From positions 34,935-98,934 of the forward strand of contig CAZRWW010000010.1 of the NCBI GenBank assembly GCA_964603725.1: 64,000 nucleotides of DNA, written 5' to 3'. The notes under the pieces are model-generated. The model saw nothing but the letters and a program-made list of their open reading frames with translations. It was not told where the DNA came from and did not search any database. The DNA comes from an uncultured bacterium. Its GTDB lineage: Bacteria > Eisenbacteria > RBG-16-71-46 > CAIMUX01 > WJJG01. Shown here piece by piece: positions 1,042 through 61,203 of this stretch (the first letter of the stretch is position 1; each line of letters begins with the position of its first letter). The translations under genes and the position numbers were made by a program.

Positions 1042-1067
1042 TGCATGGCGCACGCTCACCTCCTGCA

Positions 1068-2300: not shown

Positions 2301-2320
2301 GTCAGGCGCCGGCCGTCATG

Positions 2321-28964: not shown

Positions 28965-28986
28965 GGACCGCTCTCCCTTTGGCGGC

Positions 28987-35965: not shown

Positions 35966-36154
35966 GGGTGCACCTTCTCGCCTGACCGAGGGCGGGTGGA
36001 ACTGCGTCCGTCCCTTCCGATGGCTTCACGAAGGTCCGTAGACGGTCATCAACCTTGCGCTGGACCCGGCAGGGGGACCAGGCCGCAGTCTTACTAGCTA
36101 TCAGGGTAGCACCCTGTCGCGGGGGGCGGCAACGGGAGAGCGGTGCCTAGAATC

Positions 36155-37450
36155 CAGCGCCTCCGATTCGAGCGATGTCGGAGGGTGCTCACCGAAGGGC
36201 TGTTTTCTGCAGACCTCCCATGAGCAGCAGCTCTCCGAGGCTCTATCGCCCAAGTTCACACCCCACGGGCAATTGGAGCGCCCCGGCGAATGCACCTCGC
36301 CCGAGGTCGCTACTCGCGAACTTGTGGTCGTCTCCGCAGTACCCTCCCGGGACACTCCGCTCAGCCCGGTCAACTGCGCGCCAGCAGACCTATGCGCTCC
36401 CGGGCGGCCAACACGAGTTCCATCGAGGGGTGGCCAGCGCTGAGCCGCAGCCACCAACACCGCGCGTGACGCACTACCCGCCCCGGCAGGTGGCTGATGG
36501 CGTAACGGATCGCCTTCAGCCGCTTCGTCACCCACTCGCCCCCCAAGACCAACCGCTTTAGCGCCGTGTTCAAGTTCAGCGCCAACACCATGATCGCCCA
36601 CCAGGCCGCGTTGGCACCGAACGACCCCGAGGGCAGTTTGCCGCCGGCCAAGCCATGCTTCATCTCCCTGTGGATGCCTTCGCTCGTCCCGCACCGCTCG
36701 CGATACCACCCAATCAACTCCTCACCATCGATCGCGCGGTTCGTCGCGATCCCGAACACCTTGTAGCGCCCCCTGTGCACCAAACTCCTTGACCGGAAAC
36801 GGCAGATCCTGCTGGACGCGGTAGCGCAACAACCGGTGGTTGTAACCAACCTTATCCGATTGCAGATACACGCGCCGCACACCCTGCGGCAATCCCGCCA
36901 ACGCCTCGGCGAGCACCCGCAGGATCTCATAGCCGGCCGACGCGTTGCCGTCCCGGAACTCCGAGTGCATGACCAAACCCTGCTCGACCCAATACACGTT
37001 CAGCGGTTGATACCCCTTGAAGCCCCGGTAACAACACAGCGCCTCCCGCTTCTCGCCCGCCACCAAGGTGGCATCGGCGTCCAGCGTGGCCTGTTCCTGT
37101 GCCGCACACCGCTGCACGAACCCCACCATCTCCCGGTTCACCGCCGCCAACCCTTGCAAGGTCGGCTTCGGCGTCGGAATGAGGGCCTTGTGCGCCTCGC
37201 GCAACTTCTTCTGCTCCGGATAGTGAAACTCCGTCAAGTAGCAAAACGTCGCGGTGGGCGACGGCACACTCCGGTGCCGGCTCTTGCGCCACCGCCGCTC
37301 CCGCGCCCGGCGCTCCCGCCGGAAAACGCCGTGACACTCCACTTGGCGCAGCAACCGACCGAGGCCCTCGTCGTCCTGCCGCACGCGCAGATCGTCCACA
37401 CTCTCCCCACCAGCCAACTGCGTCAGCATCAGCAACAACACGATCCAAGT
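36155..37450 (-). mobile_element. IS1380/IS4-like insertion-sequence remnant. The transposase is split across two frames and 5'-truncated by the IS630 insertion.
   Basis: The track ORFs 36370..36930 and 36722..37903 together encode a DDE transposase C-terminal region (..YRGFKGYQPL..EFRDGN.. and GKLPSGSFGANAAWWAIMVLALNLNTALKRL), but the two frames differ. The 3' 340 bp (36155..36494) recurs at 46360..46700. Confidence 0.5.
36370..37450 (-). pseudogene. Frameshifted, N-terminally truncated IS1380/IS4-family transposase gene
   Basis: Two overlapping reading frames (36370..36930 and 36722..37450) each carry part of the transposase. The upstream part of the 36722..37903 ORF is antisense to the IS630 transposase and so is not real. 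Confidence 0.5.
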
Positions 37451-37513
37451 AGCTTCGCCTGATTCGGAATAACCGCGCTTTGATAGATCTTCCTTGACGG
37501 GCCGCCGGAATAG

Positions 37514-37576
37514 AAAGAGACCTCCCTTGTCAACACAACCCTCCCCAGACGGGGAGAGCAATAGGGAGGTCTCTTT
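37514..37576 (+). promoter_or_regulatory. Perfect 13-bp inverted repeat that sequesters the GGGAGG Shine-Dalgarno of the IS630 transposase
   Basis: AAAGAGACCTCCC (37514..37526) pairs with GGGAGGTCTCTTT (37564..37576), which ends 1 nt before the GTG start at 37577. A nested CTCCCC/GGGGAG repeat sits in the loop. Confidence 0.5.
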
Positions 37577-38620
37577 GTGCGCGCTCGTCTGTTGCCACTC
37601 GGCCGCGCCGCCCAGCGGCGCATCCTGGGCCTCGATCGTAAGACCCGCAACGCGGATGTCCGCATCCGCTGTCGCATTGTCCTGAAGGTCAGCCAAGGCC
37701 AAAGCTGTCGGGCCGCAGCACTTCAGCTGGGCTGCGTCCCCTCCACCGGCTGGCGCATCGTACAGCGATTCCGCTGCCTGGGGGAAGCAGGTTTGCTCGA
37801 CGGACGCTGCGACAACGGCACGCCCAAGCTGGACGACGACTTGCGCCAAGCCATTGAAGCGATCCTCTACAACTCCCAGCCAGACTACGGCTGCCAGCGC
37901 CAAAGCTGGACCCTGGAGATCCTGGCCCGCGTCATTGCCGACGCCCTACAGGTTCAGCTCTCTGTCGGCCACCTCTGGAAGATTCTGAAGACCATGGGCG
38001 TACGCTGGGGTCTGCCCAGGCCCGTCGTGGCCTGCCCCTGGAAGGCCGCCCGCCGCAAGCGCCGGCTGCGCAAGCTGCACCGCTTGGCCCGACATCCCGC
38101 CGCCCGCGAGGTCGTCGTCTATGCCGACGAAGTCGATATCCATCTGAACGCCCGCATCGGTCGCGACTGGATGCCGCGTGGCTACCAGCGCCGCCTGCTC
38201 ACCCCCGGCCAGAACGCCAAACACTACGTCGCGGGAGCCTATGATCCCTTGCGTCAGCGGATGGTCTGCGTCTCGGGTGATCGCAAGGTCAGTTGGCTGT
38301 TCCTCAACCTCTTGCGCGCGCTCCTCCAAGCCTACCCGTGGGTCCGCCGGATCCACGTGATCCTCGACAACTACGTGATCCACAAGAGTCGACTGGTCCT
38401 GACTGCGCTGCGCGCCATGCCCAAGACCCAGCTGCCCTTCTTGCTGCCCTACTGCCCGGACCACAACAAGATCGAGAGGGTCTGGAGAGACCTGCACGCC
38501 AGCGTCACTCGTAATCATCGCTCCCCCGACCTCAAAGCCCTGATGAACAACGTCTACAAGTACCTCAGCGCTCACTTCCAGGTGTTCTATGGTTCCTGCT
38601 TCACGCCGATCAGGACTTGA
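37577..38620 (+). CDS. IS630-family (Tc1/mariner-like) DDE transposase
   Basis: N-terminal HTH, then a DDE region (..VVYADEVDIHLN.. ..ILDNYVIHKS..) typical of IS630 transposases. GTG start. Confidence 0.8.
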   Translation: MRARLLPLGRAAQRRILGLDRKTRNADVRIRCRIVLKVSQGQSCRAAALQLGCVPSTGWRIVQRFRCLGEAGLLDGRCDNGTPKLDDDLRQAIEAILYNSQPDYGCQRQSWTLEILARVIADALQVQLSVGHLWKILKTMGVRWGLPRPVVACPWKAARRKRRLRKLHRLARHPAAREVVVYADEVDIHLNARIGRDWMPRGYQRRLLTPGQNAKHYVAGAYDPLRQRMVCVSGDRKVSWLFLNLLRALLQAYPWVRRIHVILDNYVIHKSRLVLTALRAMPKTQLPFLLPYCPDHNKIERVWRDLHASVTRNHRSPDLKALMNNVYKYLSAHFQVFYGSCFTPIRT

Positions 38621-39332: not shown

Positions 39333-39765
39333 TCAGGTCCGGGGTCGGGGCGCGAGGCTGGCGATCATCCCGTCCACCGCGGCGCCCAGGGTCTCCATGG
39401 TCTGCTTCGAGAAGGCGGCGCTGAAGTTGCAGGTCGTGCCCTCGTGCATCACGAAGACGAGCTTCTGGAACACCACCTTGCCCTCGGCCGGCGCCCACTC
39501 GTACACGGCCCCGCAGACGGAGGCACCGTCGGGCCGCTGCCTCGTTCTGCGGCTCAGCAGCTCGGCGCCGGGATGGCTGTCCAGGGAATGCGCGATGCGC
39601 CCCTCGGCATAGTCCTCGATGTCCGTGCTGTTGGGCCGCGCGTTGACCTGGATGAAGAGGATGTGCTGGTGCCCGCCCGCCTCCGGACCCAGGATGAAGT
39701 GGACCAACTGGTCCTTTCAAGCGTCCGGGAGCGCGATCCTGAAGGTGCCGTTGAACCTGTTCATA
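39333..39765 (-). pseudogene. DUF1795/Eag-family chaperone pseudogene; TGA replaces the conserved Trp of the LPDGW motif
   Basis: Minus-strand translation MNRFNGTFRIALPDA[TGA]KDQLVHFILGPEAGG.. aligns with the intact paralog at 50014..50460 (..FKLLLPDGWEDRTVHCFVGPEDVG..). The TGA lies at about 39718..39720. The downstream body is conserved. Confidence 0.5.
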
Positions 39766-39811: not shown

Positions 39812-41050
39812 CTATTCGAGGCAGTGAATGCCGTCAATGCCCCCGTAGTATATCCTGCCGTCTTCGTCCATGATCATCCTGGTCAAGATGGCCGATTCCA
39901 GCCACTTCGTCAGGATCTCCTGGCCGTCCGCCGAGACGTGCACCAAGACGTGGCCGCACCCCGCGAGGACCGAGCCGTCGGCCAGGACGCTGACGGCGAC
40001 GTCGGGGACGCTGCCGGGGAGCGTGTAGGACCAGACCGCGGCGCCGCTGCGCACCTGCTGGAGCCTGTTGCCGACGACCACGTAGACCGTACCGTCCGGC
40101 GTCGAGGCCGGCGGCTGGGCCGAGGCATCGCCCTTGCCGAGGTCCAGTTCCCAGGCCACGTTGCCGTCTGCAGCGAACTGGCTCAGGCGGGGTGTCTTCT
40201 GCTCGGCGTCCACCAGCAGCGCCTGCCCGTCGGGGGTCATGGCCAGCGAGACGACGGCCGGAGTGACCACCTCGACCACGCCCTTCTCCTCCGTCTCTTC
40301 CCCCCGGAAGAGAAAGAGCCGATCCTCCGTCGCGACGGCGGCCCGCCCCCCGTCGTCGGACAGGGCGACGCCCCGCAGCCGGACCGGGAAGCGAAGCGCC
40401 GACAAGGTCTTCATGCGGTCGGGCAGGTAGCGGATGAAGCGGGAGACCGCGGGGACGGGGTTGTCCTCCGGCGTGCTCACCGGCTCCTCCCGCTCCTCCA
40501 GGCAGTAGACGACCAGCTTGTCCTGCCGCAGGTAGGCGTGCAGAACCACGTCCGGGGAGACGGACGCCAGGTGCACCTTCTGCGCGGCCTGGCCCGCATC
40601 GTCCAGCATGACGCAGTAGCCGGCGTGGTCGAGGGTCAGGATGCCGTCCTCCTCCAGCGCGAAGAGGTGGTTGCCGTACAGAGGATGGGTCCAGCGCACA
40701 TCCCCGCCCGCACGGTCTACGGCGACCAACAGGTCGCCGTAGCAGACCACCAGGAGGTCCCCGCGTAGGCCCAGACAGCGCGGCCGCCGACCCGCGGCCG
40801 CGGGGGCCGATGCGCTCCAGACGACGTCTCCCGCCGGGTGGCCGGCCACCGGCAGGAAGGAGCTGTGGCGCTGGTCGGCGTACATGCGACCGTTGAGGAT
40901 CGTCGGACCAGTCATCATATCCTCCGCATTCTCCAACGTTCTCCGATCTCTTTCGGATCCGCCCCGGCATCCGCTCAGGAGGGGCCAGGACGCCAGGAGC
41001 AGGACCGCCAGGGACAGGATTCGCGCGCCTCTCATGGATTTCTCCTGCAT
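39812..41050 (-). CDS. Lipoprotein with PQQ-like beta-propeller repeats; candidate immunity protein for the upstream metalloprotease-like effector
   Basis: Signal peptide with lipobox LLSGC. Repeated ..DG.V(W/Y).. segments consistent with a beta-propeller. It lies immediately downstream of the 1338-aa effector in the PAAR operon. Confidence 0.6.
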   Translation of the reverse strand: MQEKSMRGARILSLAVLLLASWPLLSGCRGGSERDRRTLENAEDMMTGPTILNGRMYADQRHSSFLPVAGHPAGDVVWSASAPAAAGRRPRCLGLRGDLLVVCYGDLLVAVDRAGGDVRWTHPLYGNHLFALEEDGILTLDHAGYCVMLDDAGQAAQKVHLASVSPDVVLHAYLRQDKLVVYCLEEREEPVSTPEDNPVPAVSRFIRYLPDRMKTLSALRFPVRLRGVALSDDGGRAAVATEDRLFLFRGEETEEKGVVEVVTPAVVSLAMTPDGQALLVDAEQKTPRLSQFAADGNVAWELDLGKGDASAQPPASTPDGTVYVVVGNRLQQVRSGAAVWSYTLPGSVPDVAVSVLADGSVLAGCGHVLVHVSADGQEILTKWLESAILTRMIMDEDGRIYYGGIDGIHCLE

Positions 41051-41117
41051 TTCTGCGCCGCTCCGGACCGCGCGCGGTCCGCCCCGGCCGCCTCTGGGCG
41101 TCCCGGGCCTGCCCAGG

Positions 41118-44100
41118 CTACGGCGTGATCCTCTGCAGGCTGTAGGTCGCCGGCGTGGTGCCGTCGGATCGCATCTTGTCGTTGACCCAAATCTCCAGGA
41201 ACTTCAGCGCCGCTTCCTCGCTGACCCCGGCGTCCATGTTCAGGAAGTGGGCCTTCAGTTCGTCGGCCCTGACGGACTCGGCGACGTCGAGCCGCCCGTC
41301 CGCGCTGATCAGGAGCGTCTTATCGCAGAGCTCGTCCATCGCCCGCTTGTCCGCGGCGCCGGTGAACAGGCCGCGCAGCTCATTCCGGTGGGCGTCGCTC
41401 AGGGCGCCCGTGCCCGTGTACGACACCTTCCGAGACGCGTTGTTGTAGCTGATGTCCGCCTGCAGGCCGACGGACAGAGTGGTCAAGTCCGGCGCCGTCG
41501 ACACGGTCACCGCGTAGTCGGTGATGAAGCTCAGAGCGTGGTTCCAATCGCCGCCGCCGTGGCCCTCCTGGAATCCGGACAGGAAGTGGACGTACAGGTC
41601 GTCCATCCCGGCCGGTCCGCCGACGAGGCGATACTTCTGACCGAGGTCGTCCCAGAACTTCCGGATCAGGCCCAGCCGGTCGTGGGCGTCGGCCGCGGCC
41701 ATGGCCGGCGCACCCATTGCGGCGCCGATCATCACGCGCACGAGCAGGACTCCGTGGTGGCGGTGCGTGGGCTGGTTCTTCGTGAAGCAGCCCTTCGAGC
41801 CCGCCTCGCCGTGGGACGATTCGTCCTCGGCCGTGTCGTAGAGCGCCAGGTGGAGCCGGCGCTGGGAGCGCGACTTCCGCTGCAGCCGGTTGACCGCGCT
41901 CTTGTCGGCCGCCCCGGCGAAGAGGTCGCGCAGGTCGTCGCGCTCGTCGTCGGTCATCGCGCCGCTGTCGGTCCAGAACAGGAACCGATCCGTCGCTTCG
42001 TGGCGCACCTTGGCCCGCAGCGCGGCGTCCAGGGTGGTCAGATCCGGGGTCGTGGACACGGTCACCCAGTTTGGCAGCCGGTACTGGGCATCCCGCACCA
42101 TCGGCTCGCGAAGATCGCCCTGGATCTGCGGCGTGCCCGCGGGCGCCGCGGCGCCCGTCCAGGGCGTCCAGCCAGTGGCGCGCTTGAAGGTCTGGTCCTT
42201 TCCGCCCCGCACGAAGCGGATGATGAACTTCTTCCCCTTCAGCGGGTGGTCCCCCGCGGCCGTGGGCGGCGGGCACTGGGCGTTCAGGTAGTGCAGGTGA
42301 TACCAGCAGTGGCGGCTCCGCGTGACGCCGTTGTGGAACATGATGGCTGCTTCGTTGTTCGGGTCCATGCTGTACTGCGCCAGGTGCGTGGAGAAGGCGT
42401 TGTAGTTACGCTTGTCTCCGCCGAGGTCGACGCCTCCCTTCTTGATGTACTCGTCCTGCAGGCTGGTGGCATGGCCCAGCTCGTGGGCCATGACGAAGCA
42501 GTCGTAGCTGTCGCCGTCCTCCGAATAGCCACCTCCCGTCTCGTATTTCCAGCCGGCATTGGCGGCCTGGTAGGTCGACTTGCGCAGCAACATGGCCGAA
42601 TGGGCCGTCGCGCCGTCCCGCACCGACCAGGCCCACGAGCCCGTCGCCTCGGGAACCAGAAAACACACCCAGCGCACAGACCCGCCGAAGGCACTCTCCT
42701 GGGCAGTCCGGAACTTCCCGTCGTTGTAGACCTGCTGCAGATGCACCAGCCTTTGCGCCGTCGAGAGAGTACTGCTGACGAAGTCCTTGTTCTTGGGATG
42801 GTCCGCCAGCGGGATCTCGAAGGTCTCACGCTCGTCGAAGAAGTAGAATGGCTTGATGCGCAGGGAGTCGTCCGCGGCCGGATCGATGTCCTCGTCGTAG
42901 TGGAAGCGCTTTGAGTTCCAACGCGCCATGGCGTTGTAGGGCGCCTGGTTGACGAAGTTCGAGATGTCGTCCAGGTCCGGGTTGGCGGCGACGGCGGACC
43001 AGGCCGTCCGATCCTGCGCCCCGCGCGTGTCGAGCATCACGTTCCAGGCAACCTCGATCACCAGGAAGGACAAGGGGTGGGTCCCCTCGATGTCCAGATG
43101 GTGGAAGTAGCGCAGCCCGTAGTCGCCGGTGTAGCCGTACTCGTTGTCCGAGACGTTCCGGTCCCAGGTGAAGGCGGCGTCCAGCTTCACCGCCTTCCGC
43201 GCCCCCACCACCGGCCGGTGCGCCAGGTCCATCCAGTTGGCCGGCTGGTCGGTGGTCCGCTCCCGGCCGATGACGAAGAAGTCGTTGCGGAAGTGGATGA
43301 TCCGCGCGTTGGGCGCCATGCCGCTGACCAGGTTCCGCTCGAAACGGATGCGCTCGTCGCGGGCTGTCGTGATGTTGGCGCCGCGGGACGGCGAGGCCGG
43401 AGCCGCCAGCCGCGGCGTCCGCAGCGAGGTGTTGTCCTCGGAGGGCTTGGTCCACAGGCGGAGGGTGTGGTTCGCGGTGTCGACGACAAGCACCTTGACC
43501 CGCGAGCCGGGATTCGCCCGGCCGTCGCAGAGCGCCTTGGCGATGCCCCGCTGGTTCGCGTCCTGGATGTTCTGGTCGTGCGAGGCGGCTGTCTCGAAGA
43601 TGACGACGTCGTCGAGAGAAAACTCCAGCGGCTCGCTGCGCGTCGTCGTGTTGGCGCCAAAGGGCTTCAGCTGGCGTTTGTCCGCGAGGTGCTCGTGGAA
43701 GGCGCAGTCGTGGCTGTGATCTCTGTCGTGGCGGGTGTGGTAGTTATGCGCACTCCACTTCATCGGCAGGTCGTAGTAGTGGAACTTCTGGGCGAAGGTC
43801 AGTTTAGCCCAGTTGTCGGGGCGGTTCACGATGCAGGGCGTCGCGTCGGCGTTCCGCGTGTGGATCATCCGCACGACGGGCGTGCCCTCGTGCTCGGGCG
43901 CCTCGAAGGCGAAGTAGAAGTACCTGTCCATGAAGTCCGGGTTCGGATCCTCGCTGTCGAAGCGGACGCGGACGGAGTGAATGCCCTCCTGGTACTGCGT
44001 AACGCAGGGGATCTCCTCCGGGGCGCTGCCGGCCGTCCGGAGTCGCTTGAAGGCCCTGACGTTCACGCGGCCGGGGATGTCCCGGAATTCCTCCTTGATC

Positions 44101-45134
44101 ACGTCGTAGTAGCGGAACTTGAGGTGGTAGACCACCGCGAAGCGGTCGCCCGGCCCCACGTAGTAGCGGTTGAAGTGCCGCTCGTACCACATCGGACAGT
44201 CGTGCGCCAGATCGTGCACCGCGCTCGTCGGGAGGGTGGGGCAGGCTGCCAGGGCGCCCGACTCGGCGGTGCCGGCCTGGTAGATTAGGACCTCGATGCG
44301 GCTGTCCGTCTCGGAGCGGATCTTCTCGTCGCCTCGCTCGCCGTCGGGCACGGGAAAGGAGTGGGCGCAGCCGACCATCTTGACGGTGCCGTTGATCCAG
44401 TGCAGGCCGCCGCGCAGGGCCGCCAGCTCGGCCCGGGTCTTGCCGAGGAAGTCGCCGACCATCAGCTCGTAGACGTGATAGATCGCACGCCAGTGCGAGG
44501 TCGCGAGCAGGTTTCCCTCCGCCCCGCTCACCACCTCGCCCAGGTTGGGCGGCAGGTCGGCAATCTCCTTCATGTGGGCGGCCACGTCGCTGTTAAAGTG
44601 GGCGGCGAAGTTGTCCAGGGCCGTCTGCGTGGCCTCGTCGAAGGAGTTGTTCACCTCGCCGGGGTCGCACTCCCAGTCGCCGTTCTTCCAGCCGCCGGAC
44701 TCATCGTACTCGTGGACGTGCTTCAGGATCTGCTTGTAATCCCCGACGGTGTGCCGACCACGGCAGGTCAGAGCCCAGCGCTCCGCGTTGCCGGCGATCA
44801 GCTGCAGGATCCCGTCGGCCCGCTCGCGCGAGAGGCGGAAGCTCTCCGGGATGTCGTCCTGCGCCGCCGTGTGGCCGGTGACGAGCAGGCCGCGCTCCGG
44901 ATAGAGCCGCGCCAGGACGAGGGCCAGGCCCACGGCCCTCAAGCCGGTCGCGGGAGGGTCGTCGGCATCGGGATCGACGTCCGGCGACTCGGGCATCATG
45001 ACCGCGCTGTTTTCCCGGAAGAGGACGTCCTCGAACTCGACGATGTCGACGGGGATGCGATCGACCCGGGCCTCGACGGTGGTGCCGGTCACACCGGTGG
45101 CGCCGACCCCGCCGCTGCCGCCGTTCATTGCCAT
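41118..45134 (-). CDS. Giant (1338 aa) T6SS cargo effector candidate with an OmpA/MotB-like N-terminal domain, a central zincin HExxH metallopeptidase-like domain and a duplicated C-terminal ~65-aa module
   Basis: N-terminal LLVTGHTAAQDDIPESFRLSRERADGILQLIAG resembles the OmpA_C peptidoglycan-binding motif. CFVMAHELGHATSLQDEY is an HExxH motif. The C-terminus has two homologous segments (VTVSTTPDLTTLDAALRAKV..LRDLFAGAADKSAV and VTVSTAPDLTTLSVGLQADI..LRGLFTGAADKRAM). It lies directly downstream of a PAAR gene. Confidence 0.65.
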   Translation of the reverse strand: MAMNGGSGGVGATGVTGTTVEARVDRIPVDIVEFEDVLFRENSAVMMPESPDVDPDADDPPATGLRAVGLALVLARLYPERGLLVTGHTAAQDDIPESFRLSRERADGILQLIAGNAERWALTCRGRHTVGDYKQILKHVHEYDESGGWKNGDWECDPGEVNNSFDEATQTALDNFAAHFNSDVAAHMKEIADLPPNLGEVVSGAEGNLLATSHWRAIYHVYELMVGDFLGKTRAELAALRGGLHWINGTVKMVGCAHSFPVPDGERGDEKIRSETDSRIEVLIYQAGTAESGALAACPTLPTSAVHDLAHDCPMWYERHFNRYYVGPGDRFAVVYHLKFRYYDVIKEEFRDIPGRVNVRAFKRLRTAGSAPEEIPCVTQYQEGIHSVRVRFDSEDPNPDFMDRYFYFAFEAPEHEGTPVVRMIHTRNADATPCIVNRPDNWAKLTFAQKFHYYDLPMKWSAHNYHTRHDRDHSHDCAFHEHLADKRQLKPFGANTTTRSEPLEFSLDDVVIFETAASHDQNIQDANQRGIAKALCDGRANPGSRVKVLVVDTANHTLRLWTKPSEDNTSLRTPRLAAPASPSRGANITTARDERIRFERNLVSGMAPNARIIHFRNDFFVIGRERTTDQPANWMDLAHRPVVGARKAVKLDAAFTWDRNVSDNEYGYTGDYGLRYFHHLDIEGTHPLSFLVIEVAWNVMLDTRGAQDRTAWSAVAANPDLDDISNFVNQAPYNAMARWNSKRFHYDEDIDPAADDSLRIKPFYFFDERETFEIPLADHPKNKDFVSSTLSTAQRLVHLQQVYNDGKFRTAQESAFGGSVRWVCFLVPEATGSWAWSVRDGATAHSAMLLRKSTYQAANAGWKYETGGGYSEDGDSYDCFVMAHELGHATSLQDEYIKKGGVDLGGDKRNYNAFSTHLAQYSMDPNNEAAIMFHNGVTRSRHCWYHLHYLNAQCPPPTAAGDHPLKGKKFIIRFVRGGKDQTFKRATGWTPWTGAAAPAGTPQIQGDLREPMVRDAQYRLPNWVTVSTTPDLTTLDAALRAKVRHEATDRFLFWTDSGAMTDDERDDLRDLFAGAADKSAVNRLQRKSRSQRRLHLALYDTAEDESSHGEAGSKGCFTKNQPTHRHHGVLLVRVMIGAAMGAPAMAAADAHDRLGLIRKFWDDLGQKYRLVGGPAGMDDLYVHFLSGFQEGHGGGDWNHALSFITDYAVTVSTAPDLTTLSVGLQADISYNNASRKVSYTGTGALSDAHRNELRGLFTGAADKRAMDELCDKTLLISADGRLDVAESVRADELKAHFLNMDAGVSEEAALKFLEIWVNDKMRSDGTTPATYSLQRITP

Positions 45135-45146
45135 AACCAGAGCCTC

Positions 45147-46229
45147 TCAGGATCGATTCTGATCCCGCACGTTGACGGTGACCCGTATTCGCCCGGGCGA
45201 AATGTCCTCCACCTTGCCGCAGCCGTTCTCGTCGAGGGTGCCCTCGATCACCTGGCCGTTGGCGCAGACCACGCAGTAGGGTTCGTAACCCACCTCGTTG
45301 CCCTCCTCGTCCCACAGCTGCAGCTCGATCCAGTCCTTGAAGATCCGCGATCCGGAGCGCGCCGCGCAGATGCTGGCCTCGGCGATGCAGTGGAAGGTCG
45401 GCGCCGAGTTCCCCTGCCAGACGCTGCGCTCCTCCTGGACCGGCAGCAGGTCCTCGGCCACGTCGAGGGTCCACTCTCCCTCGATCCGGTCGCCGTCGAC
45501 CTGGGTCTCGATCATCCGGAGCTCGCGCTCGGGGGCGTTGAGGTCGCGCATGAAGATCGGCAACCGCGCCGGGGTTCCCGACTCGAGCGCCGAGCACTTG
45601 CCCTGCGGCCGGACGACTTCGCCCAAGCCCGCCCCGCCGACAGACCAGGCGGCCCGGGAGGTGACGCACACCTCGATGTCGTAGCTGCCGGACTCGAGGT
45701 CCGTCTTGCACAGGGTGCCGTCAAAGGTGCCGACTTCCTTGACCGTGCCGCGACCGCAGAGGGCGCAGCCAATTCCCGTGACCGGGAAGCCGCCCTCGTC
45801 CACGAAATCGACGTGCAGAAAGTGGTCGTCGGCCTCCTCGGTCTGGGAATCGATGCCGGCCTCGCTCTCACAGGCCGAGCTGCCGGCCCCCCCGGCGGTC
45901 GCGCAACCGGCTGCGGTGCCGGTCCCCATCAGAACGGTCGGGCAGCCAGGTGGCGCAATGGTGTCGAGCGGTCCGACGCAGGTGGCCATGTCGCCGGCGC
46001 AGGCCGCCGGGAGGCCGCCGGTCAGCACGGTCGCCACTTCGGGCGGCATTACGGGCCCGCCGACGTGGGCGATGGGTGGGGTCCCTGGCGTCCGCATGGG
46101 GCAGGTGCGCATGTCGCCGACGCGGGCCGCCGGAACTCCCCCGATGAGCACAGTCGGCGCGCCAGCGACGACCTTTCCGCCATGGGCGGTGGTGTCACCC
46201 AATCGCGCGTCCGGTTTGGACATACCCAA
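45147..46229 (-). CDS. PAAR-repeat spike-tip protein with a ~200-aa C-terminal extension domain of unknown function
   Basis: N-terminus RLGDTTAHGGKVVAGAPTVLIGGVPAARVGDMRTCPM..TVLTGGLPAACAGDMATCVG carries the PAAR motifs. The C-terminal half is homologous to the 50507 PAAR C-terminus and to the standalone ORFs at 48888 and 38758. Confidence 0.85.
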   Translation of the reverse strand: MGMSKPDARLGDTTAHGGKVVAGAPTVLIGGVPAARVGDMRTCPMRTPGTPPIAHVGGPVMPPEVATVLTGGLPAACAGDMATCVGPLDTIAPPGCPTVLMGTGTAAGCATAGGAGSSACESEAGIDSQTEEADDHFLHVDFVDEGGFPVTGIGCALCGRGTVKEVGTFDGTLCKTDLESGSYDIEVCVTSRAAWSVGGAGLGEVVRPQGKCSALESGTPARLPIFMRDLNAPERELRMIETQVDGDRIEGEWTLDVAEDLLPVQEERSVWQGNSAPTFHCIAEASICAARSGSRIFKDWIELQLWDEEGNEVGYEPYCVVCANGQVIEGTLDENGCGKVEDISPGRIRVTVNVRDQNRS

Positions 46230-46359: not shown

Positions 46360-46700
46360 GGGAATCCACCGCCTCCGATTCTGGCGATGTCGGAGGGTGC
46401 TCATCGAAGGGCTGTTTTTGCAGGCCTCCCATGAGCCGCAGCTTTCCCAGGCTCTATCGCCCAACTTCGCACCCCAAGGGCAATTGGAGCGCCCCTGCGA
46501 ATGCACCTCGCCCGCGGTCGCTACTCGCGATCTTGCGGTCTTGCTCGCAGTACCTCACGGGACACTCCGCCCAGCTCGGTGACCCGCGCGCCAGCAGGCC
46601 GATGCGCTGCCGAGCGGCCAACACGACGTCCGTCGAGGGGTGGCTGGCGCTGAGCCGCAACCACCAACACCGCGCGTGACGCACCACCCGCCCCGGCAGG
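46360..46700 (-). repeat. 340-bp partial copy (about 88% identity) of the 3' end of the IS1380/IS4-like element at 36155..36494
   Basis: Directly alignable nucleotide blocks, for example GATGTCGGAGGGTGCTCA.CGAAGGGCTGTTTT and CACCAACACCGCGCGTGACGCAC.ACCCGCCCCGGCAG. The copy lacks the stop codon, producing the chimeric ORF 46454..46975. Confidence 0.8.
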
Positions 46701-46975
46701 GAGTAAGAGGAATCTTGTGTCCTTGACCGCTGGGATCTAAGGGGCTTGCGAGACTGGCACGACCGTCGTCGCCCTAGGCGCCGGTGGCCGGGGTGGGGGA
46801 GTATGCTCTGCGCCTGTGCCTGGGCCGGTGGCCACCCCCGGGAGTCTGCATGCCGCGCGTACCGGCGGATCGCCTTGCCATCCACGCCCGTGTGACGTGC
46901 GATCTCCCGCTGGCTGAACCCGTAGCTTATTAGAGTCTTGATCGCTATCCGTAGATGGCTCTTCAAACTGTTCAC
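46454..46975 (-). pseudogene. Chimeric IS remnant ORF: an N-terminal IS-type HTH fused to the C-terminal tail of the IS1380/IS4-like transposase
   Basis: N-terminus MNSLKSHLRIAIKTLISYGFSQREIARHTGVDGKAIRRYARH is an HTH. C-terminus ..LPGRVVRHARCWWLRLSASHP.. equals the end of the 36370..36930 ORF. There is no DDE core. Confidence 0.5.
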
Positions 46976-47170: not shown

Positions 47171-48181
47171 CTACCCTCCTGCACCATCCGCACACCAGAT
47201 GTGTTTCCACGTGATCCGGAGGGTCTTGCCCTCGGTGCTGACGTCGATCCAGTAGCCGTTGTCCATATTCCAGTTCTTGACCACGGATCGGAACTGGTTC
47301 TGCTGATCCTCGCTGCTTGGATTGCCCTGATAGAGAGTGATCAAAGCCTCGCAGAGCTTCTCCGCCAACCCCACAGCGCGTGTCCGCAGAAGGTCGGGAT
47401 AGTACTTCGTCTTCGACTTGATCCGGTCGTGTTCGACCAAGGACATATGCGGTTTCGTGGGCACGGGACTTCCAACAACGCCCCAGATGATCCGAGACTT
47501 GTCATACGCCTCGTCCAGAACCACGTCATAGTAGTTCTCGTAGCAGTTCTTCAGGTAGGCGAAGCCCGGGGACTGGCCGTGCGTGTTCTGGAAGGCGAGT
47601 TCTATGTCGCGTAGAACATCTTTGGTCTCGGCATGGAGCTGCGTATAGCCCGGCATGGCAGGCAAAGTAACCTGAGTGCAGGGAGGGACTAAGTGGACCC
47701 AGGAGGAACCCGTGTGGATGTCTTTGCGTCCGTAGAATTCCTTCGCGAGGTATGAGTCCTGGTGACACTCAGAGGTCTTGTGAATGTCCTTGATGACCTG
47801 GGAGTGGTAAGCACCCGCGTAGCAGTTTACGTAAGGGTGAACCATCGCATCCGCCGCAACGTGCGTGGCATGCCCGAGCGCGTAGGCCAGCGTCCGTTCC
47901 CGGCGGTCCTTGTCCTTCGTGGTCTTTGCCACGAGGACCAGCTGCAGTAGGAACTCTCCCTGCTTGTTGTAGTGGAATAGGTCCGCATAGACGCTGTGGC
48001 CGGACTTCTCCCGGCAGTATGGCAGATCGGGTCCATTCGCGCCGAAGTAGACGTACTTGGAGATGCCCTCGTTCTGATCGTCCGCACGACCCTTGAAGAG
48101 CTCGTAGCCCTGCTTTTTGCCGTTGATGAAGCGCCAGGCGACATCCTTGGCAACAGCCCAATGCGCCAGAATAGCAGGCAT
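47171..48181 (-). CDS. Zinc-dependent phospholipase C / S1-P1 nuclease-fold protein; candidate T6SS lipase effector
   Basis: N-terminal MPAILAHWAVAKD and LAYALGHATHVAADAMVHPYVN match the H/D zinc-ligand pattern of the Zn-dependent PLC family. It is the last gene of the PAAR2/Eag operon. Confidence 0.55.
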   Translation of the reverse strand: MPAILAHWAVAKDVAWRFINGKKQGYELFKGRADDQNEGISKYVYFGANGPDLPYCREKSGHSVYADLFHYNKQGEFLLQLVLVAKTTKDKDRRERTLAYALGHATHVAADAMVHPYVNCYAGAYHSQVIKDIHKTSECHQDSYLAKEFYGRKDIHTGSSWVHLVPPCTQVTLPAMPGYTQLHAETKDVLRDIELAFQNTHGQSPGFAYLKNCYENYYDVVLDEAYDKSRIIWGVVGSPVPTKPHMSLVEHDRIKSKTKYYPDLLRTRAVGLAEKLCEALITLYQGNPSSEDQQNQFRSVVKNWNMDNGYWIDVSTEGKTLRITWKHIWCADGAGG

Positions 48182-48253
48182 CGCAGACCCTCTTGATCAA
48201 CTCTGCCTGAGCCTACGGCGCTAGGCCACTAGCATCAGGCAGTAGTAATAGCA

Positions 48254-48859
48254 TTAGACAGTGGTGACGACTTGCTTGCCGTTTTTCCAGTAGATGACCC
48301 CGTCAATCAGGCAATCGAGAATCTTGGCCTCCTCCTTCTTGTCGAGACGGATCAGGATCCGGTTGATGCCTGCATCCGACTTCTGCAGATCCTTGGCAAG
48401 CTCATCGAACGTCTTGGTCTCTCCGGTCAGACAGAAGTCACCGCGGAACAGGATGATCTGCGCCCGTAGAGAGGCTGTTGGATATACGTCCGCATCCTCC
48501 CGGAAGACCGTCTTCCCGCTGTCCTTGTCGTACGTCTTCAGAAGACCGCCTTTCTGCGGTTTCAGGGTGACACACAGGTTTTCAAGAGAATTGTTGACGC
48601 AGTCCACATCTCGCAGAGTGATGGAATGGCGATTGCCCTTGGTGACGACTCCGCGATCGCTCACCTTCCGAAGCCGTCCCTCGTGCATTTCCATCAAGAG
48701 CCGGCCGCTTCTGTCTCCCAGCTCAAGATCAGCTTTGGTCTTCAGGCCAGCCGTGGGATCGATCTCGATGGCGAGTTCGATGTTCACTTGCGACAGGACG
48801 AGGGGATGGCTCTCACCGGTCTTCAACTTGCTATCGGTCTGCTCGGGGTCACCCATCAC
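48254..48859 (-). CDS. Hypothetical 201-aa protein; candidate immunity or adaptor within the PAAR2 effector operon
   Basis: Complete ORF with plausible composition and no recognisable motif. It lies between the PAAR C-terminal-domain-family ORF and the PLC-like gene. Confidence 0.4.
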   Translation of the reverse strand: MMGDPEQTDSKLKTGESHPLVLSQVNIELAIEIDPTAGLKTKADLELGDRSGRLLMEMHEGRLRKVSDRGVVTKGNRHSITLRDVDCVNNSLENLCVTLKPQKGGLLKTYDKDSGKTVFREDADVYPTASLRAQIILFRGDFCLTGETKTFDELAKDLQKSDAGINRILIRLDKKEEAKILDCLIDGVIYWKNGKQVVTTV

Positions 48860-48887
48860 GTCTCTCCTGTACAGGCATGCCTACCCG

Positions 48888-49772
48888 TCACTCTCCGGCT
48901 TGCTCAGGCAGGATGGTAACGGTGCAGGTTCCGGGAGGGATGTTATCGAGACGGATGAGACCCTCCTCGTTGATCTGCTCCTCGCGTTCACTACCGTCGG
49001 GAAGCGTAATCCGTGCCCTTCGGTTGGCGGCAGGTTGGCCGTCGACCCCGGCGCAATGGACTTCCATCCAATCCTTGAATCTCAGAAGCTCCGATTCCTG
49101 TTCCGTCCCAAACTCCTTCTCCCCGACCTTCACCGTAAAGAAGTACTCTGGCGGGTTGTAGCCTCCTCCGTACTTCTCCATCTCTTCCTGGGTAGGAATC
49201 TCGTCCGTGTCCTCGTAGTACTCGTACTCCCACTGTACGTCGATCCGCTCGTCGACTACCTGCGCAGGCAGCTCCACGATCTTGTCCGGTGCCCCATTTT
49301 GGTCATACTCGTAGACGGTGACAACAGCCTCTGTCCCGGGTGGCGCCCCCTGCACTCTGGCGGTCATCTTCAGGAGATCCCCCCGGCGAGCCTCCGTCGC
49401 ACTCCACTTGAGGTTGGAGACCTTGATGGGTGGGTAGGCCTGTATCCGATCCGACTCCCCCCGAATCGAGTGCTTGGGCAGTTCCACCATGAAGTAGACT
49501 TCATCCCCGACCTCGATGTCCTCCGGTATGCTGAGTGCTGTGCACAGGACGTTTCGTGAGATCTTCTCTTTGACCTTGCCCAGCTTCTTGCCTCTGACGC
49601 TGCGCCCCTCGATGGTCACCGGCGCGCCCAGGCCGACCATCTCCGTGCGCACCTCGAGTCTGACCTTCTGGCCGCCGAATGCGCATGGGGACAGCCACTG
49701 CGCTCGCACGAGACGCGCCTCGAGCTTGACGGTGTGCTTCGTATCCGTGTCTTTGGTGAACTTGAGATCCAC
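48888..49772 (-). CDS. Standalone member of the PAAR C-terminal domain family (294 aa)
   Basis: Aligns with the C-terminal extensions of both PAAR proteins, for example ..YFFTVKVGEKEF..LLRFKDWMEVHC.. versus ..YYFIVMAGDCMAQSGVLKYKDWIEIKL... It has no PAAR motifs. Confidence 0.5.
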   Translation of the reverse strand: MDLKFTKDTDTKHTVKLEARLVRAQWLSPCAFGGQKVRLEVRTEMVGLGAPVTIEGRSVRGKKLGKVKEKISRNVLCTALSIPEDIEVGDEVYFMVELPKHSIRGESDRIQAYPPIKVSNLKWSATEARRGDLLKMTARVQGAPPGTEAVVTVYEYDQNGAPDKIVELPAQVVDERIDVQWEYEYYEDTDEIPTQEEMEKYGGGYNPPEYFFTVKVGEKEFGTEQESELLRFKDWMEVHCAGVDGQPAANRRARITLPDGSEREEQINEEGLIRLDNIPPGTCTVTILPEQAGE

Positions 49773-50013
49773 TCTATTCCCCTAATGAACTTGGCCCGGG
49801 GGCTGTCGGGAACATCCCAGAACCGAACACGCTGAGCCGGTAGCCCGACGGTTGGCGGCCGGCAGCACACCCTTAGGGCCATGCCGCCCCCAGCTCAACG
49901 AAGCACCCCAACAGCCGCCTACGTCATTCCCGCCACTGAGGACTACGTCACCCCGCGACACCGGTCTACGTCACCGCTGCGATCGCCGCTTACGTCACCG
50001 CCGCGACCGCCGC

Positions 50014-50460
50014 CTACGTCCCCCCCGCGATCGTATCCACCATGCTCGTGATCTGCGGAACCAGCATCTTATTCGCCCGCTTCGAGAGATCCACCCAGCA
50101 AGTGTACCCCGTCCCATCGAGCATCAAGTAAAAGTGCCTGCGGATCAGGGTCCGTCCGTCGGGGTGCGCCCAGCGGCACACCAAGCTGTAGCACTTCTTA
50201 CCGCTCGGGAGCGCCTCCTCGCCTTCGCTGGTGACCTCTGCCCCCGCCAGGGCGTCCAGGGCCGCATCTCGACGCAGGCGTGCATACGCCTCCAGGGCTG
50301 CCGACTCGGGTTTCGGATCAATGTTAATCAGTAACGTGGGTTGTTCGCCCACGTCTTCCGGGCCAACGAAGCAGTGGACCGTGCGGTCTTCCCACCCGTC
50401 GGGTAGGAGCAGCTTGAACTGATGATTCGTCCGATCCGTCACGATGGCCTCACGACCCAC
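50014..50460 (-). CDS. DUF1795/Eag-family effector-associated chaperone
   Basis: 148 aa with the F.LLLPDGWEDRT motif characteristic of DUF1795 (EagR/EagT) adaptors. It lies immediately downstream of a PAAR gene. Confidence 0.65.
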   Translation of the reverse strand: MGREAIVTDRTNHQFKLLLPDGWEDRTVHCFVGPEDVGEQPTLLINIDPKPESAALEAYARLRRDAALDALAGAEVTSEGEEALPSGKKCYSLVCRWAHPDGRTLIRRHFYLMLDGTGYTCWVDLSKRANKMLVPQITSMVDTIAGGT

Positions 50461-50506
50461 CGGCGGCGGGCAGCGTCCGCAAGGACTCCCCGGCCCTCAG
50501 TGCCGC

Positions 50507-51634
50507 CTAGCTGCCTTGGCTCCGAAGATCGAATGACACCTCAACCTTCCCCGGAGCAATCTTCTCGACCCTGGCCTGGCCCTGCGAGTCCAGCTGGCCT
50601 TCCCTTATCTCACCGTTCGGCATGCGCAGCTTGTACTTGGCGTTGCCGATCGGCTGATCCTTTTCATCAACCAGCTTGATCTCGATCCAATCCTTGTACT
50701 TCAGCACGCCCGATTGCGCCATGCAGTCGCCCGCCATGACGATGAAGTAGTACGATGGGGTTGAATAGGCGCGTTTTGGAGCGCTTTCGTCGTCTTCCGG
50801 GATGGCATTCTCGACCTTGAACTCCCATTCGGCTTCGATCTTATCGCCACTGACCTGGGAATCCAAGGTGTACAAGATCCGGTCGGGGCGCTTGTTGTCG
50901 CGGGCGAAGATGCGCAGGGTCGCCGGTGTGCCGCCGTCGATGCCGGAGGTCTCGGCGGTCAGCTTGACCTTGTCGCCGACCGCAGCCTCCGCGACGGACC
51001 AGTTCGCGTGATGAATCACCCGTAGCTGGATCTCGTAGCTGCCTTCCTCGACCCCTGTACACTTGAGATGTCCCGCTAGCATTCCTTGGGTCACCTTGCC
51101 GGAGGGGTACTTGAGTTCGTACTTGAGATCCGACACCGGGAACCCGCCTTGATCGACGAACTTGACGTCGAGGAAATGGGTCTCTTCCTCAGCTTCAGCC
51201 TCACCCTCACCGGCGGCCTGGCCCTCAGCGCTGCGATCAGCAAGCGCGAGCTCGGCGGCCACCTGCGCGCCGCCCTTAACGCCCGCACCCCGGCCCGAGC
51301 CCGTACGGCCGGCGCCGCCTCCACCTCCGCCTCCGCTCTGGCCGATCAGGACGGTGAAGCATCCCATGGCGATCGTATCCGGCGGTCCCGCGCATTGGCA
51401 CATGTCGCCCACGCGAGCTGCCGGCATGCCGCAGATCAGGACATTGGGGGATCCCATCGAAATCGGACCGCCGACGTGAGGGGAGGGACCGGGGTTCATC
51501 ATGGGGCAGACGTGCATGTCGCCGACGCGAGCCGCCGGGGCTCCCCCGATGAGCACAGTCGGCGCCCCGGCGACGACCTTCCCGCCATGGACGGTGGTGT
51601 CACCCAATCGCGCAGCCGGCTTAGACATGAGCAA
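50507..51634 (-). CDS. PAAR-repeat spike-tip protein with a Gly-rich linker and the same ~200-aa C-terminal extension domain
   Basis: N-terminal PAAR motifs (AARLGDTTVHGGKVVAGAPTVLIGGAPAARVGDMHVCPM..). A poly-Gly linker is followed by a C-terminal domain homologous to the 45147 PAAR C-terminus. Confidence 0.85.
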   Translation of the reverse strand: MLMSKPAARLGDTTVHGGKVVAGAPTVLIGGAPAARVGDMHVCPMMNPGPSPHVGGPISMGSPNVLICGMPAARVGDMCQCAGPPDTIAMGCFTVLIGQSGGGGGGGAGRTGSGRGAGVKGGAQVAAELALADRSAEGQAAGEGEAEAEEETHFLDVKFVDQGGFPVSDLKYELKYPSGKVTQGMLAGHLKCTGVEEGSYEIQLRVIHHANWSVAEAAVGDKVKLTAETSGIDGGTPATLRIFARDNKRPDRILYTLDSQVSGDKIEAEWEFKVENAIPEDDESAPKRAYSTPSYYFIVMAGDCMAQSGVLKYKDWIEIKLVDEKDQPIGNAKYKLRMPNGEIREGQLDSQGQARVEKIAPGKVEVSFDLRSQGS

Positions 51635-51980
51635 GCCTCAGTGACGCTAGCGAAATCCCACGATTCGTCACGATCATACAAGCGGCCGGACTTGCTGTCA
51701 CCTGGTTGTCAGCGGAGCTTGTCTTTGCGTAGGCACCTGACTCAGCTTCTTGGTTATCGGACGGATCGCCCCAGCCCCGCCCGGGAGGTTAAGACGCAAC
51801 AGGAGATACAGATGTAAGCATTCCTGGCGCTGTAGCGACCCGCCGGTCACGCGCCTGCCTTGCACCCCCTGCGTCTGGCCCATAACCTCGCCACAGAATC
51901 GCACAATCCCGATTGACGGTCGCCCCCCGAACTCACTACTATCGACGTGTTCGGCAGCGCGTAGATGGCGCGGAAGGTCA
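51635..51980. promoter_or_regulatory. Divergent intergenic region between the PAAR2 effector operon (minus strand) and the ClpV-TssBC-Hcp-VgrG-TssEFG operon (plus strand)
   Basis: About 350 bp of non-coding sequence sits between two divergently oriented T6SS gene sets. No specific promoter motif could be assigned by eye. Confidence 0.3.
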
Positions 51981-54725: not shown

Positions 54726-54769
54726 TGGGAGACCCTTGGCGGGCTCCGAGACCATGAGCAGAAGGTGAG

Positions 54770-55237
54770 GTGCAAATGGCGGAGAAGTACCAGCGGCTGA
54801 TTGACGCTCTCCCCGCTGAGCTCAAGGAGAATGTTCAGGCCATGGACCTGAGCAACACGATCATCGTGGGGGAGTTCGGTGAGCACAAGCAGAACGAACT
54901 GGTTCCCGTGCCGACCATCAAGAAGGCCTTCGAGACCTACGAGCCGTCCGTCGAAATCTCGGTTGAGACGGTGGATGGCGACACTGCCAGCGAGGTGCTT
55001 CGCTTCCGCGAACTGAAGGACTTCGAGGTCGAACGGGTCGTGCCGCAGTCCAAGGCGTTGTCGGAGCTGAGTGCGGCCGTTGACGTGTATGCCGATCTGA
55101 AGGGCACGCTCGGCAAGTCCCCCAAGTGGAAAAAGCTGTTCGAGGACCCCAAGCTGCGGGCGGGTCTGGTGGAACTGCTCGATCAGATGCTGAAGGTCAT
55201 TGATCCGGAAGACAAGACCAAGGTGGCAGAGAAGTAA
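54770..55237 (+). CDS. tssB: T6SS small sheath subunit TssB (VipA-like)
   Basis: 155 aa. The motif TIIVGEFGEH matches the conserved TLVVGDFKGH segment of VipA. It lies immediately upstream of a ~460-aa TssC-sized gene. Confidence 0.6.
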   Translation: MQMAEKYQRLIDALPAELKENVQAMDLSNTIIVGEFGEHKQNELVPVPTIKKAFETYEPSVEISVETVDGDTASEVLRFRELKDFEVERVVPQSKALSELSAAVDVYADLKGTLGKSPKWKKLFEDPKLRAGLVELLDQMLKVIDPEDKTKVAEK

Positions 55238-55255
55238 GGAAGCGGGGGAGCAGTC

Positions 55256-56638: not shown

Positions 56639-56642
56639 GCAA

Positions 56643-58184: not shown

Positions 58185-58240
58185 CCGATGCGTTCCAGAC
58201 CGTTCTAGGCACGACGTAACAGCCAACGGAGGACAAAGCC

Positions 58241-58672: not shown

Positions 58673-58713
58673 AGACCCTATTCCAGAAGCTGAAATGAAG
58701 GAGGATCGCAGTC

Positions 58714-59136: not shown

Positions 59137-59227
59137 CAGGGCGGCCTCCTGATCAGGATATCGTCGGCCGGCCGGAGGCTGCTGATTCCGGCCGGCCCGC
59201 CAGCCTGTGCTAGCCGGAGGTGCCCTC

Positions 59228-61201: not shown

Positions 61202-61203
61202 GC

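Follow-up and report, generated by a model that had tools for sequence, protein, structure and literature searches.

A PAAR-linked family of large candidate type VI secretion effectors with OmpA-like and zincin-like regions, encoded beside a beta-propeller lipoprotein

Results

The BIG gene and its cassette

The window analysed here is a stretch of 64,000 nucleotides from an uncultured bacterium of the Eisenbacteria lineage (contig CAZRWW010000010.1), and it contains a gene for a 1338-residue candidate effector of a type VI secretion system (T6SS), which we call BIG. The BIG gene occupies positions 41118-45134 of the minus strand, starts with ATG, and has a third-codon-position G+C fraction (GC3) of 0.92. 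The genes around it were mapped with a codon-position G+C filter combined with Pfam scans, the window being ~70% G+C. Directly upstream on the same strand lies the gene for PAAR1 (45147-46229), a 360-residue spike-tip protein identified by the Pfam model PAAR_motif (PF05488, E=3e-20), and 12 nucleotides separate its end from the start of BIG. PAAR1 has a PAAR domain and, C-terminal to it, an extension of ~230 residues. Homology links this extension to the C-terminal portion of the 294- or 298-residue transthyretin-like (TTR-like) protein encoded in this and related loci, the common domain being ~170 residues long. Downstream of BIG is the gene for a 412-residue beta-propeller lipoprotein (39812-41050, minus strand; Pfam PQQ_2, E=6.8e-10), which is the candidate immunity protein.

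Next on the minus strand is a DUF1795/Eag-like gene (39333-39764), recognised by homology to related loci, whose 143-residue DcrB/DUF1795 genes are 41-50% identical to it. An in-frame TGA at 39717-39719 creates a premature stop at a position where the homologues have the Trp of an LPDGWED motif, and from its sequence the gene is probably a pseudogene. The 298-residue gene of related loci is missing after the Eag-like gene in the window, and in its place stands an insertion sequence (IS) transposase gene on the plus strand (37577-38620; DDE_3 with helix-turn-helix domains, Pfam DDE_3 E=6.7e-24). The Pfam scan identified a second transposase gene on the minus strand (36722-37903). PAAR1, BIG, the propeller gene, the Eag pseudogene and both transposase genes are enclosed by two direct repeats of ~345 bp (repeat families D2-D4), which are 89-93% identical and 10.2 kb apart. 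The left copy spans 46362-46700 and the right copy 36150-36490; a helix-turn-helix fragment on the minus strand (46454-46975) overlaps the direct repeat. The bracketing of the cassette by these repeats suggests that it was mobilised, or was copied, as one composite unit.

BIG belongs to a large unannotated family

A word-indexed search retrieved 10 full-length close homologues of BIG, which are 44-75% identical to it and conserved along the whole length. An exhaustive search with a hidden Markov model (HMM) of residues 590-1012 (profile A4) then gave 173 cluster representatives at E<=0.001. Each representative stands for a cluster at 50% identity, and we give the family size as at least 173 clusters. 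Most representatives are 1100-1400 residues long and collinear with BIG, as illustrated by P0012, which is 30% identical over 1098 residues (E=5e-131). The source names inspected within the family are all 'hypothetical protein', and the sources are Zixibacteria, Ignavibacteriales and unclassified metagenome-assembled genomes. A scan of 2.9 million viral contigs gave no family relative.

The original prediction, made from the letters of this DNA and its open reading frames, had described a PAAR-linked frame of 1338 residues with an OmpA-like N-terminal segment, a central AHELGH motif and a duplicated C-terminal module of ~65 residues. The frame stands as described, the N-terminal segment GHTAAQDDIPESFRLSRERADGIL is found at residues 87-110, and AHELGH is found at residues 883-888. 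The duplication is also real, with a local alignment score of 152 compared with 28.8 +/- 4.9 (maximum 46) in 300 shuffles. Self-alignment places repeat module 1 at residues ~1024-1090 (41865-42065, minus strand; VTVSTTPDLTTL...) and repeat module 2 at residues ~1209-1275 (41310-41510, minus strand; VTVSTAPDLTTL...). AlphaFold2, which was run on two halves of BIG with a 10-sequence alignment, models the C-terminal 330 residues well and shows the repeat module as a confident small beta/alpha unit. Both modules are insertions peculiar to the 1338-residue subfamily and are absent from relatives of ~1170 residues.

BIG has no signal peptide, lipobox or transmembrane segment (maximum 19-residue Kyte-Doolittle hydropathy 1.8, at residue 1129). 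The same holds across the family, where an N-terminal hydrophobic segment is present in at most 1 of 111 full-length members. Sequence searches of Pfam, NCBIfam and the PDB with BIG alone gave nothing at threshold, the best matches being M6 (E=6.7e-4), M64 (E=0.039) and YiaD (E=0.76).

A divergent OmpA-like domain at the N-terminus

Residues ~29-290 of BIG (44265-45050, minus strand) constitute an OmpA-like domain, as determined with AlphaFold2, Foldseek and sequence profiles. The predicted local distance difference test score (pLDDT) is mostly 70-96 over residues 30-250, and the top PDB matches in Foldseek are TagL (5m38), OprF (5u1h), OmpA (5wtp) and YiaD, with probabilities of 0.97-0.99 and E-values of only 0.07-0.3. 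The domain is split by a helical insertion of ~130 residues (residues ~117-250). BIG does not reach the curated threshold of the Pfam OmpA model (PF00691) and gives no match to it even at E<=10. Among its relatives, 17 of 29 match this model at E<=0.01 (best E=3.9e-10), and the OmpA/Pal/OprF domains of the PDB are matched by the subfamily profile at E=0.018 and by the wider-family profile at E-values down to 5.8e-7. Since the family profiles match OmpA domains of the PDB and BIG itself falls below threshold, we regard the N-terminal domain as homologous to OmpA-like domains and divergent from them.

The OmpA-like assignment of the original prediction is therefore upheld, with a caveat at the ligand-binding site. 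The BIG segment GHTAAQDD..SFRLSRERA aligns with GHTDTSGE..NFELSDLRA of P0012, and SRIEVLIY aligns with NRRVELLF. The Asp of GHTD and the Arg of LSxxRA are ligand contacts in OmpA-like domains, with the Asp contacting diaminopimelate. R105-A106 of the LSxxRA motif is invariant in the 10 close homologues. The GHTD Asp is replaced by Ala90 in BIG, and 9 of the 10 close homologues have Ala or Ser there; the canonical GHTDTSG occurs in the wider family. With Ala in place of this Asp, peptidoglycan binding is not assured. More distant relatives contain LysM-like, PG_binding_1 and CBM_5_12 modules, which makes wall or glycan binding a theme of the family.

An all-beta region follows the OmpA-like domain at residues ~333-465 (43740-44138, minus strand; predicted strands, pLDDT 53-73). 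It is preceded by a Cys/His cluster (C298, H307, C313 and H320; 44175-44243) that is invariant in close homologues. The wider family has a similar C-x7-H-x4-C cluster, whose residues could bind a metal in a small site or form a disulfide.

A conserved HExxH motif in a zincin-like region

The zincin-like region of BIG spans residues 590-1010 (42105-43367, minus strand) and has no Pfam or NCBIfam model at threshold. It contains the putative catalytic motif H884-E885-L-G-H888-ATSLQ-D894-E895-Y896 (42447-42485, minus strand) and, 44 residues past H888, the methionine M932 (42339-42341, minus strand). None of H884, E885, H888, D894, E895, Y896 and M932 varies in the 10 close homologues, and a wider alignment of 29 members likewise has an invariant methionine in the column equivalent to M932. 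On these sequence grounds M932 is a candidate for the Met-turn residue. D894 stands in the place of a third metal ligand. We take the Asp at short spacing, together with a Met 44 residues after the second His, to resemble the arrangement in metzincins such as snapalysin. Across the family, 132 of 158 representatives have HExxHxx[GSA]xx[DE][DE][YFW], and another 19 have a form of it with one inserted residue (151 of 158 in total); the remaining representatives lack the motif, and several of these are short fragments. Retention of the motif on this scale indicates an enzyme under selection.

Matches to known peptidase families are consistent in kind and weak in score. NCBIfam TIGR03296 (M6 domain) is matched below threshold by 10 of 10 members (best E=2.2e-5), with scores of 19.6-21.8 bits against a cut-off of 110.8. 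Sub-threshold Pfam matches are to Peptidase_M64 (PF09471) in 6 of 10 members (13.5-15.8 bits against a cut-off of 26), to Reprolysin_5 in 4 of 10 and to M66 in 1 of 10. Because the scores lie far below the curated cut-offs, BIG is not a member of M6 or M64. When the wider-family profile is compared with the PDB, this region is matched by zincins only (snapalysin, MMP-2, ADAM8 and serralysin; E 0.1-0.4). The AlphaFold2 model has pLDDT <50 over most of residues 590-985, and its best structural matches are metzincins, at non-significant levels. The zincin core that had been predicted around HExxH is thus favoured by an invariant motif and by faint M6, M64 and reprolysin matches that agree with one another. 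In the HMM classification that the prediction called for, the matches all point to zincins, and none reaches a curated threshold.

The propeller protein carries export signals

The propeller protein begins MQEKSMRGARILSLAVLLLASWPLLSGC, and the lipobox L25-S26-G27-C28 is present as the original prediction had described it. Of 15 propeller homologues with a recovered N-terminus, 14 have a signal-like or anchor-like N-terminal segment, and a lipobox is also present on the propeller of the related locus L002. In related loci the propeller frames begin further upstream than the automatic calls place them, and the added stretch encodes a signal-like or lipobox-like N-terminus. Open reading frames of 53-56 residues that are annotated between BIG and the propeller in related loci appear to be miscalls in at least L002, where the propeller frame reaches upstream to include the signal peptide.

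A five-gene module recurs in related loci

We retrieved 80 metagenome loci that carry members of the wider family and scored their gene neighbourhoods by tblastn, with counts given over evaluable loci. In the loci of close homologues the gene order is PAAR (~360 residues), BIG, propeller, DcrB/DUF1795 (143 residues) and a ~298-residue protein, after which come variable genes and then ClpV, TssB, TssC, Hcp, VgrG and gp25. A PAAR gene is directly upstream of the family gene in 45 of 55 loci, and VgrG is often just upstream of PAAR in the wider family. The propeller gene immediately follows the family gene in 31 of 32 loci, DUF1795/Eag lies within 4.5 kb in 21 of 27, and the 298-residue protein is encoded within 6 kb downstream in 23 of 27. 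The linkage to PAAR proposed for the window thus recurs in most of the evaluable related loci, beside T6SS core genes. PF08786 is the DUF1795/Eag chaperone family, whose members usually chaperone the transmembrane segments of prePAAR effectors.

Pfam does not reveal the membrane complex of the Zixibacteria-type T6SS clusters among these loci. The final large gene in such clusters, encoding ~735 residues (L096 19215-21431; L098 17873-20074), gives only weak IcmF-related N-terminal and double-GTPase matches.

BIG and the propeller are replaceable and diverge rapidly

Related clusters were sampled via the TssC gene, whose Zixibacteria type has more than 300 homologues; the sample is small, with five contexts examined. 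The module is present in clusters L095 and L096. Cluster L096 combines a TssC of 81% identity with a BIG protein that shares only 22-24% identity with other members. In L097, a complete genome whose TssC is 83% identical to that of L002, the main T6SS cluster has unrelated housekeeping genes in place of the module. Cluster L098 keeps the arrangement of PAAR, Eag, the 298-residue gene and ClpV, and here BIG and the propeller are replaced by unrelated proteins of 564 and 233 residues. L099, the Eisenbacteria cluster closest to the window T6SS (TssC 64-65% identity), has no PAAR or BIG module. In comparisons of the same clusters, BIG is 22-56% and the propeller 24-41% identical, compared with 81-85% for TssC, and TssB or the 298-residue protein (57-59% identity) likewise diverge much less than BIG and the propeller. 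BIG and the propeller therefore behave as a swappable cassette. The repeats, the IS genes, the nonsense codon in Eag, the replacement or absence of the cassette elsewhere and its fast divergence are hallmarks of a mobile, replaceable effector-immunity cassette.

The replacement genes of L098 lie at 824-3246. The 564-residue protein ends ...VVRHESGHATKSF...AGIMYY and has a C-terminal HESGH, and the 233-residue protein starts MAILALIAC. Despite its HESGH, the 564-residue protein was rejected as a homologue of the zincin-like region of BIG (hhalign probability 2.9%). Together the two genes may encode another effector-immunity pair, unannotated and likewise featuring an HExxH motif.

The window encodes a second PAAR cassette and a divergent T6SS core

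A second PAAR-led cassette occupies 47171-51634 of the minus strand, in the order PAAR2, DUF1795, and proteins of 294, 201 and 336 residues. PAAR2 (50507-51634) has 375 residues and is 43% identical to PAAR1; it gives weak SpaA (prealbumin-like) matches in its C-terminal region, and weak CorA-like matches, in Pfam. It is followed by the DcrB/DUF1795 gene (50014-50460), the 294-residue TTR-like protein homologous to the 298-residue protein of related loci (48888-49772), a 201-residue protein with no match in the scans (48254-48859), and a 336-residue protein similar to zinc-dependent phospholipase C (47171-48181; Zn_dep_PLPC, E=2.3e-8), all on the minus strand. From its sequence, this last protein is a candidate phospholipase effector.

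Genes diverging from PAAR2 on the plus strand (51750-63368) encode ClpV, TssB, TssC, a TssC-like protein, two Hcp proteins, VgrG and a 591-residue protein. The T6SS core (ClpV, TssB, TssC, two Hcp and VgrG) corresponds to 51750-61201 and includes two TssC-like genes (55256-56638 and 56643-58184, plus strand). TssC of the window has only 7 homologues in a collection of 5.8 billion sequences. The named relative, at 64-65% identity, is from a Candidatus Eisenbacteria genome, and its cluster, L099, is syntenic. The core is only ~25% identical to the Zixibacteria-type core, and the T6SS lineage of the window is rare and divergent. ClpV is a single protein of 991 residues in the window, compared with two adjacent open reading frames (~485 and ~365 residues) in Zixibacteria-type clusters; the split form is seen in L002, L003 and L095-L098 (for example, L002 16917-19465).

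Elsewhere in the window, an open reading frame of 3112 residues (14272-23610, plus strand) and a 310-residue Omp28-like protein (2321-3253, minus strand) both end in a FlgD_ig-type domain. Domains of this kind at the C-terminus may act as sorting signals for type IX secretion, as would suit an organism of the Fibrobacterota-Chlorobiota-Bacteroidota (FCB) group. At 25770-32658 on the minus strand, the gene for a 1107-residue BTAD/NB-ARC/TPR regulator adjoins that for a 1223-residue ClpB-like double AAA+ protein with a C-terminal PCRF-like match (E=1e-8), an unusual pairing with no link to BIG.

Discussion

BIG as a candidate periplasm-acting toxin

We think it probable that BIG is a T6SS cargo effector and that the downstream beta-propeller lipoprotein is its immunity protein. 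For an unannotated family encoded between PAAR and exported propeller genes, a new family of injected antibacterial toxins with an antidote is the most likely interpretation. The role in immunity that the original prediction gave to the propeller agrees with its position directly downstream, its export signals, its fast divergence and its joint replacement with BIG in L098.

We infer a course of loading on PAAR, delivery, catalysis and neutralisation as follows. BIG, which lacks a Sec or Tat signal, would be made in the cytoplasm, where it would have no substrate. It would be loaded on the VgrG spike via the PAAR protein encoded 12 nucleotides upstream, with the TTR-like C-terminal extension of PAAR1 as the likely place of docking. 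The DUF1795/Eag-like and 298-residue TTR-like accessory proteins probably assist in loading. Contraction of the sheath would then inject BIG into a neighbouring diderm cell and deliver it to the periplasm, where the split OmpA-like domain may tether it to the cell wall and the metzincin-like domain, with its HExxHxxSxxDEY motif, may cut an envelope substrate. HExxH zincins are protein and peptide hydrolases, and wall peptidases usually belong to other clans. This usual activity, and the action on lipoproteins suggested for VgrG2b (discussed below), favour an envelope protein, and the substrate is more likely to be a wall-associated protein or lipoprotein than a peptidoglycan peptide. The periplasm-facing propeller lipoprotein would bind and block BIG, protecting sister cells.

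Several observations weigh against this interpretation. Every HMM match to a peptidase family is below its curated threshold, and the predicted structure is unconfident over the HExxH region, which leaves a zincin fold putative. Binding to the wall may be altered by the replacement of the GHTD Asp with Ala in the subfamily. No protein of the module has the transmembrane segments that Eag proteins normally chaperone, and we know of no verified precedent for a beta-propeller immunity protein. Finally, the position of the module is kept across very divergent clusters, to a degree above that of typical strain-variable effectors, which leaves room for an accessory role.

Such a role could be that of a spike-mounted enzyme that opens or grips the wall for the spike and its cargo, like the lysozyme domain of phage T4 gp5, with the propeller merely shielding the producer's own wall. 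We consider this unlikely. The position of the module is unusually well kept even where the BIG proteins of different clusters share only 22-46% identity, which would suit an accessory enzyme, as would the wall-binding modules that are constant across the family and the frequent placement of the module at the head of the T6SS cluster, as its first operon segment. The other variable genes between the 298-residue gene and ClpV could then be the real toxins. Related clusters that have no module (L097 and L099) or carry an unrelated pair (L098) argue that the machine does not require it, and an arms race would explain the fast co-divergence of BIG and the propeller better than a housekeeping function would, although an accessory enzyme and a toxin are hard to tell apart computationally. 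If anything less likely is that BIG is a near-universal spike-tip device for gripping or cutting the wall in the T6SS lineage of Zixibacteria and related FCB-group bacteria, and not primarily a toxin. BIG would in that case be a functional counterpart of the T4 gp5 lysozyme, required for passage of the spike or other cargo through a cell wall, and the five-gene module of PAAR, effector, propeller, Eag and TTR-like protein would be a semi-structural unit of this T6SS type.

Roles as a structural component or as a stray lysin seem to us very improbable. BIG could serve as an anchor, equivalent to TagL or to an OmpA-extended TssL for a T6SS without TssJLM, or as part of a TssNOPQR-type complex; the best structural match of its N-terminal domain is the peptidoglycan-binding domain of TagL from the enteroaggregative Escherichia coli T6SS, and neither TssJ nor TssL is recognisable by Pfam in these clusters. 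All five Bacteroidota membrane-complex proteins (TssNOPQR) are, however, membrane proteins or lipoproteins (PMC10781749). With no signal peptide, lipobox or transmembrane helix in BIG and in 110 of 111 family members, there is no Sec or Tat route to the periplasm of the producer. We rejected a membrane-complex role on this ground and because related clusters do without BIG; such a role would also leave the conserved catalytic motif unexplained. Just as little probability attaches to BIG being a lysin of a phage tail or extracellular contractile injection system (eCIS) that lies near T6SS genes by chance, or a secreted protease unrelated to the T6SS. Phage tails do contain large proteins with wall-binding and peptidase domains. 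The scan of viral contigs, which led us to reject a phage origin, argues against this, as do the very tight linkage to PAAR and the identity of the neighbouring genes, which encode ClpV, TssB/C, Hcp and VgrG rather than phage or eCIS baseplate proteins or terminase.

If BIG is an injected toxin, the family constitutes a large group of effectors whose central 400 residues have no Pfam or NCBIfam model, and a conserved module of five genes for loading is defined in T6SSs that have been little studied, those of uncultured phyla of the FCB group (Zixibacteria, Ignavibacteriales and Eisenbacteria-like bacteria). The class of T6SS metallopeptidases that act in the periplasm has few members, and it would be broadened by a wall-tethered toxin, by the beta-propeller lipoprotein as a possible immunity fold and by DUF1795/Eag proteins without transmembrane clients. 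The family could also be used as an annotation marker for T6SS effector islands in metagenomes.

Comparison with known systems

Over its HExxH region, the nearest HMM matches of BIG are to M6 (immune inhibitor A) and M64 (IgA peptidase), with which it presumably has an HExxHxxGxxDEY-type motif in common. BIG differs from these families in its domain context, in having no signal peptide and in scoring under the curated thresholds. Its N-terminal domain resembles those of OmpA, Pal, OprF, YiaD and TagL in fold, in the LSxxRA motif and in the terminal RIEV/RRVE strand motifs. Unlike these domains, it contains the insertion of ~130 residues, has Ala for the GHTD Asp, and is carried by a cargo protein without a signal rather than by an envelope-resident protein.

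The module as a whole resembles PAAR-TTR spike tips with Eag proteins, such as Tse6-EagT6 and Rhs-EagR, in that a PAAR gene heads the cassette, a DUF1795/PF08786 gene lies within it, and TTR-like docking domains are present. There, PAAR and toxin form one fusion protein whose N-terminal transmembrane helices are shielded by Eag, whereas BIG is a separate protein and the module has no transmembrane helices.

By analogy, the closest characterised counterparts of BIG and the propeller are the VgrG2b C-terminal domain with PA0261 and Tpe1 with Tpi1. The toxicity of these T6SS metallopeptidases is confined to the periplasm and is countered by immunity proteins exposed to that compartment, and VgrG2b has been suggested to act on lipoproteins (PMC6899460). 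VgrG2b is described as thermolysin-like, with a distant Glu as the third zinc ligand, and a crystal structure of its C-terminal domain has been reported (PMC6899460). In both known pairs, as proposed for BIG, a spike-linked HExxH metallopeptidase is encoded next to a periplasm-exposed immunity protein, which is sometimes a lipoprotein. PDB-chain searches with the single sequence and with profiles gave no match to the zincin-like region better than E 0.1 and no VgrG2b among the matches listed; judged from these PDB-chain searches only, BIG has no detectable sequence relation to VgrG2b or Tpe1. VgrG2b is fused to VgrG and BIG appears to be free-standing cargo beside PAAR. BIG is also metzincin-like in its HExxHxxSxxD motif and conserved Met, in contrast to the thermolysin-like VgrG2b. 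It is 3-4 times larger than the VgrG2b and Tpe peptidases, adds an OmpA-like domain, and is paired with a propeller as the candidate immunity protein. The best-supported placement of BIG is therefore as an unannotated effector family inside the known paradigm of periplasmic T6SS metallopeptidases.

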